From the NCBI RefSeq assembly GCF_004376175.1, contig NZ_SNUY01000033.1:1-32000 (forward strand): a DNA stretch of 32,000 nt, written 5' to 3'. Made by a program: the position numbers and the translations under genes. Source of the stretch: Halalkalibacterium halodurans. GTDB lineage: Bacteria > Bacillota > Bacilli > Bacillales > Bacillaceae_D. Positions 1,634 through 17,066 of the stretch are shown here, piece by piece. A model generated the notes under the pieces. That model had not been told where the DNA came from. It saw only the letters and a list, made by a program, of their open reading frames with translations, and made no database searches. Position 1 is the first letter of the stretch. Each line of letters begins with the position of its first letter.

Positions 1634-3614
1634 CGGTTGTTCCCTCCCTTATCATTGGAAAATAAAGGCTTATCGTCGTACCAATCCTTGCAGTAGTTCT
1701 AATCACAAGCCTGCCCCCATTTTCCTGTACATACTGGTTGGCAATCGCAAGTCCTAATCCTGTTCCTTTTGCCTTCGTCGTAAAAAACGGCTCAAGGGCT
1801 TGCTTCTGTTCTACTTCTGTCATGCCAACACCTTCATCCTTAACTTCAAGAATATACTCCTGTTTCAACTGGTACACGCGGATGGATAGCCGTAAGCCTT
1901 CTTCATTTTTCTCCTCCATCGCGTCCAAGCTATTAATCATTAAGTTCATAACGACTTGTTTCAGCTGGTTAGGATCCGCCTTTACGAGAAAGGGTCCTTC
2001 GATCGCTCCGTCCATCGTAAAACCCCGATTGGTCACGGTTCGATCAAAAAGCAGCATACACTCTCGGGCGAGCTCTGCGAGATCGATCATCTCCCTAGAA
2101 GGTTGCTTCGGTTTTGCATAATCAATGAGCCCTTCAATCAACGTGCTAACCCGCTCAATTTCTTGTGGAACATAAGTGGAAATCTCCTTTTGGAATCGTT
2201 CGTTACAAAGCTTTTTCGGGATTAACTCGACAAATGTTTTAATCGAGGTGAGGGGATTTCGCACTTCATGGGCGATCCCTGCCACCACACGGATGAGAGC
2301 ACGGCTTTTTTCTTGTTCGAATATTTGCATCCGCAGCTGCCGTTCTTCCGATATATCTTCAAACGTAACAATAGTTCCCGTTACGTTCCCTTCGACGTCA
2401 AATACTGGATATACATAATAGCGCAGGTAGATGGTGCGTCCATCAGCTCGCTCCCATTTGGTTTCCTCCCCTAAAAACCGTTGTTTTTCTGTAAATACCG
2501 TTTGTACTTTTCCGATTAATAGTTTTTTCAAAAGAGAAACTTTTCCAAAGTGAAGGCCAACGGTCTCTCTCGTAGTCCCTACAATCGCAGCCGCTTTCGG
2601 GTTAAAAGAAGTAATGATCCCTTCACGGTTAACCGTGGCAATCCCCCGCGGACTGCTATTTAAAATTTGGCGCTGAAACTCGTTGCTATTGCGTGTTTCC
2701 TCTATTTGTTTTTCTAACGTTCGATTCAACTCATGGAGGACAACGGTTTTTTTTGCTACTTCTTTTTGGAGCTGGCGATTCCAACGAATCCCTAGAAAAA
2801 ACAAAATGAGCGCAATAAGCAATAGAACCCCAATAATTTGAATCGCTAGCCACAGCCTCTCGGTGACAAGCTGTTCTCCGTTAAACCAATGTCGATAAAG
2901 AGTGCTATACGTCCCATCGCTTTTCAACTCTCGTAATCCGTCATTGATGTCCATTAAAAGTGGGTAGTTTTCTTTTTGTACGGCTATCGTATAATCGAGA
3001 GGGAGCAAATAGTTTCCAGCTACACGATACTTATGAGACAGACCTTTTTGCTCCAGCAAATAGTTCGCCGTCAACACACTCCCAATAAACGCCTCAGCTC
3101 GATCGTTTTGCAACAGCTCAATCCCTGCTTCTTGATGACTTGTCACATGATAACGAATGCCGCGAATATTTCGTAAAAACTCGTACTCTAACGTATCTGC
3201 TTGCAGGGCAGTTACTTTGTTCGCCAAGTCTGGTAATCCTTGAATCTCCTCATTATTGGTCGCCACAATTAAGCCGATCGATGTTCCGAGAATTGAATCT
3301 GTAAATTCAAGTCGGTTCGCGTACGACTCTTTAAAAGGCAGGGAAAGAAAAATGTCCACTTTCCCTTGATCAATTGCTTCTATAGCCTGTCGCTGAGTCA
3401 TTGGCACATAGTGAGCGTCCCATCCTTTCCTCTCAGCAACCTCAGAAAAGATATCAATAACAAACCCGTACGGTCCGTCACCTCCTTCCGCATGCAACGG
3501 GGGGAGATGAGGATCATAGGCCACCTTCACTTGCCGCTCAGCTAACGCGGGGGCGGGAAGCATCACGAACATAAAGACAAGCTTGATCATCAGGTAAAGC
3601 GGAAATCGTCTCAT
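1611..3614 (-). CDS. sensor histidine kinase with an N-terminal extracytoplasmic solute-binding (family 3 SBP-like) domain, TM helix, PAS, HisKA and HATPase domains
   Basis: Signal/TM start, ~230-aa SBP-like region, and TM helix LWLAIQIIGVLLLIALILFFLGI. PAS region, H-box AHEVRNPL, G1 DEGVGM and G2 GTGLGL. Confidence 0.92.
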   Translation of the reverse strand: MRRFPLYLMIKLVFMFVMLPAPALAERQVKVAYDPHLPPLHAEGGDGPYGFVIDIFSEVAERKGWDAHYVPMTQRQAIEAIDQGKVDIFLSLPFKESYANRLEFTDSILGTSIGLIVATNNEEIQGLPDLANKVTALQADTLEYEFLRNIRGIRYHVTSHQEAGIELLQNDRAEAFIGSVLTANYLLEQKGLSHKYRVAGNYLLPLDYTIAVQKENYPLLMDINDGLRELKSDGTYSTLYRHWFNGEQLVTERLWLAIQIIGVLLLIALILFFLGIRWNRQLQKEVAKKTVVLHELNRTLEKQIEETRNSNEFQRQILNSSPRGIATVNREGIITSFNPKAAAIVGTTRETVGLHFGKVSLLKKLLIGKVQTVFTEKQRFLGEETKWERADGRTIYLRYYVYPVFDVEGNVTGTIVTFEDISEERQLRMQIFEQEKSRALIRVVAGIAHEVRNPLTSIKTFVELIPKKLCNERFQKEISTYVPQEIERVSTLIEGLIDYAKPKQPSREMIDLAELARECMLLFDRTVTNRGFTMDGAIEGPFLVKADPNQLKQVVMNLMINSLDAMEEKNEEGLRLSIRVYQLKQEYILEVKDEGVGMTEVEQKQALEPFFTTKAKGTGLGLAIANQYVQENGGRLVIRTTARIGTTISLYFPMIREGTTDETNSHN

Positions 3615-14933: not shown

Positions 14934-14968
14934 TCATTAAAGTGCTTTGGAATAGCCATTAAAAGAAA

Positions 14969-14993
14969 TGCCCACCCGCCGAAAGGGTGAGCA
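14969..14993. terminator. bidirectional terminator shared by two convergent small genes
   Basis: TGCCCACCC / GGGTGAGCA stem (8 of 9 pairs) with a 7-nt loop. It is flanked by an A-run upstream and a T-run downstream. Confidence 0.6.
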
Positions 14994-15001
14994 TTCTTTT
15001 G

Positions 15002-15295
15002 TTAAAAAAAGAGTAATTGGAGTTTATGCCCTTGCTCTTCAACTGTTTTTCCGTTTTTATACTCGTCTATAAATACTTGACGCTTGTTCGTAAGTGACAT
15101 AAATGCGTCTTGATCCCGTTTTTCTAGCGCCTGATCGATCGCTTCGTCAATTTCCTTTTTTCGATATGCAAAGATCGCATATTCTAAAATGGCTTGAGCG
15201 TACAACGATTGTAAAACGGACTCAGGACGCTTTTCGACTCTCAACTTTCGCAATTGACGTAGTGCCTGCCGCTCCATCGCAAAATGTTGGCTCAT
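15002..15295 (-). CDS. IDEAL-domain protein (YpiB/UPF0302-like C-terminal motif)
   Basis: Contains EIDEAIDQALEKRDQDAFMSLT, the signature that gives the IDEAL domain its name. The start chosen is the ATG at 15295, with AAAGGGG 9 nt upstream. The ORF is open up to a TTG at 15361 that has no Shine-Dalgarno. Confidence 0.6.
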   Translation of the reverse strand: MSQHFAMERQALRQLRKLRVEKRPESVLQSLYAQAILEYAIFAYRKKEIDEAIDQALEKRDQDAFMSLTNKRQVFIDEYKNGKTVEEQGHKLQLLFF

Positions 15296-15585
15296 CGTCC
15301 GCATCCCCTTTCTTATTAAATTTCCATTCTCCGATTGTTGCCGGTCATAGCGTTCATTCAACCAGATGAGTGCTAATTCTCTGGTTTACCTCTCTATTCC
15401 CCGTATAACTTAATCGAAAACCTTTTCATTCTTTCTTTTTTTCGGAAATTTAGTATCAATTGCGAGCACTTTTTATGCTCGTGACAGTAGGAGATGCTAA
15501 CTATGATCAATCATCATCTGCAAAAAGTTGCGTGAGGAACCGTACTATTTTAGTGAAAATTCATTACTAATCAATTTATCCTCTT

Positions 15586-16359
15586 TTAGGATGACTTTTC
15601 CTGCTGGGCTGCCTGTTCTCGCAATTGCGCTGCCCGCACTTCCCGCTGCTCTGTGTTCATTTTCGGACAGGAGTAACAATAGTTTCCTTCTTCCTTTAAA
15701 TAGCTTAAACAACAGGCAGGTTTGATTCGAACATGTTCGTTCGGGTCCGCCCAACTGCTGACATAACGAAACTTTACATCGAACGGATTCCGTTTTAAGC
15801 CAAATGCGTCTCCACTTAACTGCTTTAAAACCTCACCATCTGTCCGGATTCGCAGTTGGGTCGTTTGATCAGTTTCTTTTTTTAACCACGCACTTTGCTG
15901 TTGATAAAGGGGAAATGCTAGTAAACCGAAGGCATGGGTTTTCGGCAAATCAGCTACTTCTGCTATATTTTCAATGATCGGGGCGATTCGTTTAGCAAGT
16001 GCGGTAAAATATGAAGAAATGCTATTCGGTGCTAATGGTTCTAGTCTGGCTCGCCTGAGCTCAAAGCCTACTTCCTTGCCTTTAGAAAAAAACGCCAGTT
16101 CATCAAACAGAAGCCACTGGTTCTTAACAGACGCTAAATAGTAGTGGGCAGCAAATAGGAGGGAGAAGGGCTTGATCATGCTTGCGCCTCCCACTTTTAA
16201 CTCTTTCCCTTTCAAAATCCCATTCCGCCATACCACCATTTTCCGTGCGCCTTCCTTACCAACAAGTCCTGTTTCTGTGATCATTAGATCTACCTTTTCC
16301 ACAGGAAATGTATGGATGAAAAACATTTCCTTTAACTGGTGCTGAATCTTTTCATCCAT
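15586..16359 (-). CDS. FhuF/FchR-type ferric-siderophore-reductase-like [2Fe-2S] protein
   Basis: The C-terminus ACCLSYLKEEGNYCYSCPK is an exact C-C-x10-C-x2-C cluster motif of the FhuF family. The ~257-aa length is typical. The start ATG at 16359 (or TTG at 16365) abuts the stop of the upstream 73-aa ORF. Confidence 0.72.
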   Translation of the reverse strand: MDEKIQHQLKEMFFIHTFPVEKVDLMITETGLVGKEGARKMVVWRNGILKGKELKVGGASMIKPFSLLFAAHYYLASVKNQWLLFDELAFFSKGKEVGFELRRARLEPLAPNSISSYFTALAKRIAPIIENIAEVADLPKTHAFGLLAFPLYQQQSAWLKKETDQTTQLRIRTDGEVLKQLSGDAFGLKRNPFDVKFRYVSSWADPNEHVRIKPACCLSYLKEEGNYCYSCPKMNTEQREVRAAQLREQAAQQEKSS

Positions 16360-16365
16360 CGACAA

Positions 16366-16587
16366 TCACCCACCTTTTTTCATTCCATCTGTCCGTTTAA
16401 TAGACTGAATTTCTGTAAGAGCTAGATGATGTACACTTTTACCATCATCATCGTAGACAAGACATGCCCTTTTTTTTGAATCATAATGTAATATTCGGCC
16501 GATGACTTTTTGGTCACCTTCGAGCAAGGAGATGACAACAAGCTGATTTTCGTCAATCCAACGCTGTATAATTTCTAATTGTCTCAT
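16366..16587 (-). CDS. small protein resembling the C-terminal half of YolD-like proteins (tentative)
   Basis: 73 aa. The pattern ...VVISLLEGDQKVIGRILHYDSKKRACLVYDDDGKSVHHLALTEIQSI resembles the conserved C-terminal half of YolD-like proteins. The N-terminal W..LPEH part is absent. Homology is unverified. Confidence 0.45.
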   Translation of the reverse strand: MRQLEIIQRWIDENQLVVISLLEGDQKVIGRILHYDSKKRACLVYDDDGKSVHHLALTEIQSIKRTDGMKKGG

Positions 16588-16632
16588 CTTGACCTATCGC
16601 TCCGATCTTTCTTCTTGTTTTTTAAATGGTAC

Positions 16633-16661
16633 TTGTCATTGTAGCAGAAAAGGGGTACAAT
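16633..16661 (+). promoter_or_regulatory. sigma-A promoter for the 119-aa gene
   Basis: TTGTCA (16633-16638), a 17-nt spacer, then TACAAT (16656-16661). Confidence 0.65.
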
Positions 16662-16667
16662 AAACAA
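16638..16667 (-). promoter_or_regulatory. candidate sigma-A promoter for the YolD-like/FhuF-like operon
   Basis: The minus strand reads TTGTTT (16662-16667), an 18-nt spacer, then TACAAT (16638-16643). Each box overlaps a box of the opposite promoter. Confidence 0.45.
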
Positions 16668-16681
16668 CGAACACATGTTCC
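16668..16681. promoter_or_regulatory. LexA (DinR) SOS box / Cheo box
   Basis: CGAACACATGTTCC against the Bacillus consensus CGAAC-N4-GTTCG. Only the last base differs. It lies 6 nt downstream of the plus-strand -10 and abuts the minus-strand -35. Confidence 0.65.
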
Positions 16682-16706
16682 TATTTTGATTTTGGAGGTG
16701 ACTGGC

Positions 16707-17066
16707 ATGTTAAATGAAGTACAGCGAAACCTTGTGCAACGCTATATTATTTTAACACTAGTTCGCCAAGCACTAGAGAAAGATTTTAACACGTTACAGG
16801 CTTCCTCGCTCATCTGTCAGGAGTTGCTTCATTCGTTTCTAACGGAACGTATGCATGAAGTAGGTCGAGAAATCGGGGCTCTCCAGCGTGATTTACGTAA
16901 ACAGAAATTAACGATCAAAAAAGAAAAGAACGACGGATTTTTCACAAAATACAGTTACTACTTTAAAGGATATGAAGGGACTTTCTCATTGTTGAATGCC
17001 AGATTAAAACACGACACTCTCACCTATATGAAGCGACACCTTTTTAAACTGGAGACTAAACAGTAG
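16707..17066 (+). CDS. hypothetical 119-aa protein, probable SOS-regulated gene
   Basis: ATG at 16707 preceded by TGGAGGTGA. The upstream part of ORF 16626-17066 is occupied by the promoter and the LexA box. Predicted to be helical. I cannot confirm any family. Confidence 0.65.
   Translation: MLNEVQRNLVQRYIILTLVRQALEKDFNTLQASSLICQELLHSFLTERMHEVGREIGALQRDLRKQKLTIKKEKNDGFFTKYSYYFKGYEGTFSLLNARLKHDTLTYMKRHLFKLETKQ

Follow-up and report, generated by a model that had tools for sequence, protein, structure and literature searches.

Does a very small gene that runs almost directly into a gene for a putative iron-sulfur (Fe-S) protein, close to a LexA operator, mark a DNA damage-inducible module in Halalkalibacterium halodurans? 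The question arises from a 32,000-nucleotide (nt) stretch of this genome (assembly GCF_004376175.1, contig NZ_SNUY01000033.1, positions 1 to 32,000; hereafter the window), in which an open reading frame (ORF) of 73 amino acids (aa) precedes a gene for a 257-aa FhuF-like protein. An earlier note, made from the sequence alone, had read the pair as an SOS module in which a truncated YolD-type factor is joined to an Fe-S protein standing in for the usual Y-family polymerase. Our analysis points elsewhere: these are probably two unrelated, poorly characterised genes that lie next to each other by chance in H. halodurans, beside the LexA-controlled gene yhjD, and the apparent SOS module would be mostly an accident of gene order.

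The local gene structure is as the earlier note described it. Both genes lie on the minus strand. The ORF call places the small gene at 16366..16587, with its TGA stop at 16366-16368, and after a 6-nt spacer (16360-16365) the FhuF-like gene (15586..16359) begins with an ATG at 16359, a start supported by the N-termini of orthologs (MDxxIK), which align with it. The junction (16360..16375) also holds a Shine-Dalgarno sequence, AGGTGG, at 16370-16375; since this falls within the last codons of the small ORF, translational coupling of the FhuF-like gene is plausible, and the two genes are probably co-transcribed in H. halodurans. Their counterparts in strain C-125 are BH2962 (73 aa) and BH2961, the latter named '(2Fe-2S)-binding protein' by NCBI; we found no mention of BH2961-BH2963 in the literature.

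It is the distribution of the pair that argues against a functional unit. The small gene directly precedes the FhuF-like gene in every H. halodurans strain examined and in no other genome searched, so conservation does not indicate that an Fe-S protein was recruited to a damage-inducible module, as the earlier note had proposed. In H. halodurans, yhjD is divergent from the small gene, which is followed by the FhuF-like gene and then by a gene for an IDEAL-domain protein. Relatives show other combinations. In Alkalihalophilus, yhjD is divergent from the FhuF-like gene, and in three of four genomes examined the IDEAL gene comes next; two of these four were searched for the small gene, and it was not found. 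Genomes of one further genus (g6) have yhjD divergent from the small gene and then the IDEAL gene, without an FhuF-like ortholog, and a second Halalkalibacterium species has the divergent yhjD and small gene only. The small and FhuF-like genes of Halalkalibacter nanhaiisediminis (H. nanhaiisediminis) are 1.5 kb apart, with an opposite-strand CNNM-type gene between them, and in H. akibai the FhuF-like ortholog comes after khtU. This differing retention among relatives suggests that the small and FhuF-like genes are independently dispensable, and their phyletic distributions are uncorrelated. Beyond this bacterial family the small gene occurs in many unrelated contexts (for example between gatB and a diacylglycerol-kinase gene, or next to fruR/fruK), and neither a LexA box nor yhjD was found at small-gene loci there. 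Both genes belong to a small conserved neighbourhood consisting of yhjD, its LexA box, the small gene, the FhuF-like gene and the IDEAL gene, of which each genus has kept its own selection; H. halodurans may have retained the ancestral set in full.

The earlier note had recognised the C-terminal half of YolD in the 73-aa protein, a resemblance that is not supported at the sequence level: as far as sequence can tell, the small protein is not a YolD. Searching it against Pfam with hmmscan gave no YolD match at E ≤ 1 (the family cut-off is 27.5 bits). A scan of the whole genome with the YolD model PF08863, again at E ≤ 1, returned true YolD genes at 95 and at 92 bits, plus one weak chance match; the 73-aa ORF was absent from these results. 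BLASTP of the small protein against both canonical YolD proteins of the genome was not significant, and only two of the 21 members of its family matched PF08863, both at E ≥ 0.029. Profile-profile comparison (hhalign) of the small-family alignment (A1) with 26 YolD proteins of the same bacterial family was likewise weak (P = 0.011, probability 4%). Pfam, genome scan, BLASTP and hhalign thus gave no significant similarity, an outcome that the earlier note had itself named as counting against its reading. The weak hhalign overlap spans 46 columns of YolD's C-terminal half, where a helix and then five strands follow in equal order, and this is the region in which the resemblance had been seen.

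According to a 2026 survey of bacterial polymerases, the one feature that YqjX/YolD-type subunits of Y-family polymerases (PolY) have in common is an unstructured arm at the N-terminus, which in models inserts into the polymerase; their C-terminal domain is described as an SH3-type barrel (PMC12926913). The arm is seen as W-E-x-S-R-x-M-L-P-E-H in the 26 YolD sequences and is missing from A1; the 73-aa protein starts directly at the helix ahead of the barrel, without a PolY-binding arm at its N-terminus. The small protein and YolD/YqjX (PF08863) are alike in being small Bacillales proteins, in a predicted order of elements that matches the C-terminal half of YolD (a helix, then a five-strand SH3/Sm-type barrel), and in having a LexA box nearby. 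Unlike YolD/YqjX genes, however, the small gene has no Y-family polymerase as a neighbour, and the genome carries its two canonical YolD genes elsewhere. The same holds for the rest of the family: tblastn with the genome's own PolY and YolD found neither within ~1.5 kb of any of 30 small-family loci. A PDB sequence search with a YolD protein found no YolD structure.

As for the canonical YolD genes, one (G000:C35:62846-65132, locus L013) follows a same-strand Y-family polymerase gene at a distance of 400 nt, and the other (G000:C13, L014) has no polymerase within the 3.2 kb fetched. At a further locus (L070, G247:C10, positions 3225-3596 and 2279), a YolD-like gene with the LMLPEH arm and a LexA box at its start stands ~1 kb away from an FchR-type paralog that has a Fur box. 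At no other place noted are a true YolD gene and an FhuF-like gene near each other, and their nearness is probably coincidence.

If not a YolD, what is the small protein? Its conservation indicates that the gene is real and belongs to an undescribed Bacillales family of ~70 aa. When 1.8 billion representatives were searched exhaustively with phmmer, 21 members emerged at E < 1e-3 (68-134 aa, mostly 68-86 aa); all named members are 'hypothetical protein' at source, and no Pfam family covers the protein or its relatives. Positions W10, G30, R31, Y45, D48, K50, E59 and I60 are conserved in A1, and the family motifs are GR...GRIL.YD, YDDD.K and NEID. The gene is present in 32 of 401 Bacillales genomes (~8%), and the family was not found in most of the Bacillales genera sampled. 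Codon changes between H. halodurans strains comprise six synonymous and three nonsynonymous ones. A PDB sequence search with A1 gave nothing useful, and word-indexed homolog searches with the single small or FhuF-like protein returned same-species copies only. The idea that the small gene is a B. subtilis yhjC-type neighbour was dropped, with no direct test, given that the family was missing from most of the Bacillales genera sampled and that no B. subtilis protein was among its named members.

The small protein is predicted to adopt an Sm/Hfq-like fold, in which a helix at the N-terminus leads into a sheet of five strands with a strong bend. In an AlphaFold2 model built from the 21-sequence alignment (predicted local distance difference test score, pLDDT, 82) the helix spans residues 2-12 and the strands residues 16-21, 27-36, 41-46, 51-56 and 60-65. 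When this model was compared with the PDB by Foldseek, the best 50 matches were all Hfq (template modelling, TM, scores of 0.73-0.78 when query-normalised and up to 0.90 when target-normalised), superposing with a root-mean-square deviation of ~1.1 Å (1.0-1.4 Å for most) over 64-66 residues at E ~1e-4. The best 50 matches in BFVD were uncharacterised phage Sm-like proteins, some of them named 'RNA-binding protein' and none named YolD. A single-sequence AlphaFold2 model, all-beta with a pLDDT of 71 and weak Tudor/SH3 matches, was replaced by the alignment-based one. The defensible label for the small protein is an undescribed small family with a predicted Sm/Hfq-like fold.

The 257-aa protein had been assigned by the earlier note to the FhuF/FchR type, and here the assignment held: homology to the superfamily is borne out by the ortholog profile and by the cysteine motif, though the protein represents a divergent orphan branch. 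The C-C-x10-C-x2-C motif is exact in the translation (ACC-LSYLKEEGNY-C-YS-CP). Its putative [2Fe-2S] ligands, C216, C217, C228 and C231 (codons at 15667..15714, minus strand), are invariant in six homologs (alignment A2). The FhuF_C model (PF11575) matched the same region (15661-15714) with 16.5 bits in hmmscan and 20.1 bits in the genome scan (20.5 'with its neighbours'), against a cut-off of 20.5, and there was no direct match to the FhuF model (PF06276, cut-off 25.2 bits); intermediate paralogs give sub-threshold FhuF matches. The stronger link comes from the ortholog profile A2, which matched a gene of the same genome positive for both PF06276 and PF11575 (C120:10034-10756) at E = 1.9e-16 over positions 10-239; by BLASTP the two proteins match at 1e-4 with 23% identity. 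A PDB sequence search with A2 gave nothing useful, and no solved FhuF was reached by sequence. Orthologs with 37-40% identity occur in Alkalihalophilus and Halalkalibacter species, and a homolog at E ≤ 1e-10 with the A2 profile is present in 184 of 401 Bacillales genomes.

FhuF of E. coli and FchR of Bacillus halodurans are described as [2Fe-2S] ferric-siderophore reductases (Matzanke 2004 and Miethke 2011, as cited in PMC8891985). The 257-aa protein resembles FhuF/FchR proteins (PF06276 plus PF11575) in the C-terminal cysteine motif, in length and in homology over ~230 residues, but differs from them in that, scanned by itself, it does not reach the Pfam threshold of either domain. Its gene also differs in its setting, a cheAWY-khtTU-yhjD neighbourhood without a Fur box or a siderophore transporter of the ATP-binding cassette (ABC) type. 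The C120 gene comes after Fe-siderophore ABC permease and ATPase genes, the canonical FchR-type arrangement, and many of the distant homologs are closely preceded by a near-perfect Fur box, flanked by genes for ABC transporters and binding proteins, or both. At the locus in the window, a scan of 16360-16710 for Fur boxes with up to four mismatches gave none, and we found no iron-uptake gene near the pair, both in agreement with the earlier note; nor was there a transporter gene in the window or at four orthologous loci. These features support a divergent orphan paralog of the FhuF/FchR superfamily outside the usual iron context, one that kept the CCx10Cx2C ligands but no longer has a Fur box or transporter genes around it. 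The protein is most likely an electron-transfer protein with a bound [2Fe-2S] cluster, conceivably a reductase; its location outside a Fur/siderophore context suggests that the substrate may not be a siderophore.

Two orthologs deserve separate mention. The one in H. nanhaiisediminis, the sole FhuF-like ortholog that has a separate promoter region at a distance from yhjD, has a Fur-like box, TGAGAATCACTATCA (L108:3965-3979), with two mismatches and 33 nt upstream. A box of this quality turns up in a shuffled 214-nt region with a probability of ~0.014, and the box is an exception within the ortholog group of the window gene. In one member of the Alkalihalophilus group (L006, G016:C1:3037511-3038262) the ortholog is split over two frames with two TAA stops, which suggests that the FhuF-like gene is dispensable.

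The LexA box itself is well founded, and in every genome examined its position assigns it to the promoter of yhjD. The yhjD-like gene of the window (16707..17066, plus strand, 119 aa) owes its name solely to a precomputed PF26325:YhjD label in other strains. Its promoter, TTGTCA-17-TACAAT at 16633..16661 (plus strand), was found by a consensus scan with 10 of 12 matches, and the operator, CGAACACATGTTCC at 16668..16681 (plus strand), agrees with CGAACN4GTTCG at 13 of 14 positions. The operator lies 7 nt past the yhjD -10, 25 nt ahead of the yhjD ATG and 81 nt upstream of the small-gene ATG. It is the sole LexA-type box with at most one mismatch in the window. Because 1.14 such boxes are expected by chance, this count alone is at chance level; the box is credible because it is kept next to yhjD in relatives. 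Other strains keep the half-sites, with variation in the N4 spacer alone. At a minimum of 11 related loci the box is equally placed after the yhjD -10, ~20-25 nt before the yhjD start, and the relatives' promoters (-35 TTGTCA or TTGCAA, -10 TATAAT or TACAAT) hold the order -35, -10, LexA box and ribosome-binding site constant. In some assemblies yhjD is called as a 146-aa ORF from 16626 (16626-17066), and with that start both promoter and LexA box would fall within coding sequence; the shorter call of 119 aa, starting with the ATG at 16707, agrees with the orthologs and with the operator position.

In B. subtilis, the yhjD homolog counts among the LexA-repressed genes of the SOS regulon. Its promoter and that of the window gene are alike in having a CGAACN4GTTCG-type box immediately downstream of the -10, an arrangement kept across genera; they differ in that the divergent neighbour in the window is the small Sm-fold gene, joined in H. 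halodurans by the FhuF-like gene. Since the operator lies within the yhjD promoter, yhjD is expected to be released from repression upon DNA damage. In Cohnella abietis, a YolD-type PolY-binding arm is fused to a domain named YhjD (PMC12926913), which links the YhjD type to translesion synthesis.

Across the LexA operator from yhjD stands the small Sm-fold gene, and this is the case in eight genomes from four genera of one family (16588-16706 in the window, and loci L019, L020, L031 and L160-L163), a point that to us is the new element of the locus. The intergenic region measures 125-205 nt in most of these genomes. The distance from the LexA box to the small gene ranges from 81 to ~300 nt, and candidate small-gene promoters in the other genera lie well away from the box. 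In H. halodurans, the yhjD -35 and the small-gene ATG are only ~45 nt apart, so that a leftward promoter must overlap the yhjD promoter and LexA may also influence the small/FhuF-like transcript. Reading the sequence for such a promoter yields a candidate extended -10, TGCTACAAT (16638..16646, minus strand), which overlaps the opposite-strand yhjD -35 and would place the LexA box near -45, abutting a weak -35; a consensus promoter scan called no full minus-strand promoter at 16638..16646. Inside the FhuF-like gene, a palindrome, TTCGAACATGTTCGTTCGG (15728-15745), likewise consists of CGAAC and GTTCG half-sites. As a LexA site it was ruled out by its spacing (CGAAC-AT-GTTCG), which is 2 nt instead of 4.

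How do these findings bear on other explanations of the locus? The one put forward by the earlier note, a LexA-controlled damage module of a truncated YolD-type factor and an Fe-S protein, with the FhuF-like protein replacing the Y-family polymerase, now looks very unlikely to us. The LexA box upstream of the small gene, the tight translational coupling, the absence of a Fur box and the YolD-like order of elements in the weak hhalign overlap all speak for it, but the tests of YolD membership failed or were non-significant, the arm that would bind a polymerase is missing (PMC12926913), the pair is confined to one species amid uncorrelated phyletic patterns, and the box is positioned for yhjD. 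Such a module, if true, would add a new branch to the damage response of Gram-positive bacteria, and the evidence falls short of that; an Fe-S protein in an SOS module of H. halodurans alone is possible. A different idea starts from the conserved part of the locus: yhjD and the small Sm-fold gene would form a divergent, LexA-co-regulated SOS couple, and the FhuF-like gene would be a passenger inserted downstream in H. halodurans. Short intergenic regions and an arrangement kept in four genera are consistent with this, as are the fusion in Cohnella abietis (PMC12926913) and the fact that the YolD C-terminal domain is also an SH3-type barrel. Yet that conservation may be inherited synteny among relatives, the small gene occurs beyond this family without yhjD or a LexA box, Alkalihalophilus has yhjD without the small gene, and in H. 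nanhaiisediminis the best small-gene -10 lies ~140 nt from the box, so that we regard the couple as unlikely. Taken one step further, the small Sm/Hfq-fold family would be a free-standing, SOS-controlled partner of YhjD and the counterpart of the YolD C-terminal barrel, with the Fe-S FhuF-like protein co-expressed in H. halodurans; we give this bolder form a rather small chance. If true, YhjD and a free-standing barrel, sharing the LexA operator in their divergent gene pair, would together make up an accessory module of the Gram-positive DNA damage response that had so far gone unrecognised.

The predicted fold raises the further thought that the small protein might function as a paralog of Hfq, forming rings and chaperoning RNA; it would act post-transcriptionally, possibly on the FhuF-like mRNA or on iron-related transcripts. 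It resembles Hfq (PF17209; PDB 4NOY, 3HFO, 1KQ2, 3HSB) in size and in its α1-β1-5 topology, the predicted structure superposes over its full length on the Hfq of many species (TM up to 0.78 for the query and 0.90 for the target), weak matches were obtained to Pfam Hfq_1 (E = 0.0065) and to an NCBIfam Hfq-related model (E = 0.027), and 'RNA-binding protein' is among the names of its phage matches. Unlike Hfq, however, it lacks sequence-profile similarity and the YKHAI Sm2 motif, and a canonical hfq lies elsewhere in the genome. The Hfq hidden Markov model PF17209 gave no match at E ≤ 10 to the small protein versus 119 bits for that canonical hfq, and homology to Hfq by profile-profile comparison was ruled out (hhalign P = 0.53). 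The place of the Sm2 motif (Y/F-K-H-A-I) is taken by K-S-V-H-H-L-A-L, the family has YDDDxK and NEID motifs of its own, and barrels of the Sm/SH3-like type are very common. We would give this role the slimmest chance of these alternatives. Chance adjacency of two unrelated genes has points against it as well. The gene order of H. halodurans could be the ancestral full set, from which the others derive by one deletion each, leaving room for a functional link; the tight 6-nt junction and the location of the Shine-Dalgarno sequence within the small gene favour coupled expression in that species; the hhalign overlap though weak, falls exactly on the helix-plus-barrel half of YolD, so that very remote homology is conceivable; and the Sm/Hfq fold hangs on a model predicted from 21 sequences.

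With chance adjacency as the preferred reading, what stands at this locus is a small family with a confident Hfq-like predicted fold that lies outside all Pfam models, whose gene is repeatedly divergent to a LexA-controlled yhjD, a type recently tied to Y-family polymerases. What stands too is an orphan FhuF/FchR-type [2Fe-2S] subfamily away from the Fur/siderophore context.

Downstream of the pair, the FhuF-like stop is separated by a 290-nt gap (15296-15585) from the IDEAL-domain gene (15002..15295, minus strand; 97 aa as called in other strains; Pfam IDEAL, 3.2e-12). No terminator was predicted in this gap, and a promoter-like site at 15574-15547 suggests that the IDEAL gene may have its own promoter. 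The first predicted intrinsic terminator 3' of the small, FhuF-like and IDEAL genes is at 14966..14996 (minus strand). Further out, khtT/khtU and cheY/W/A lie to the right of yhjD, and a TetR/acyl-CoA operon lies to the left of the IDEAL gene.

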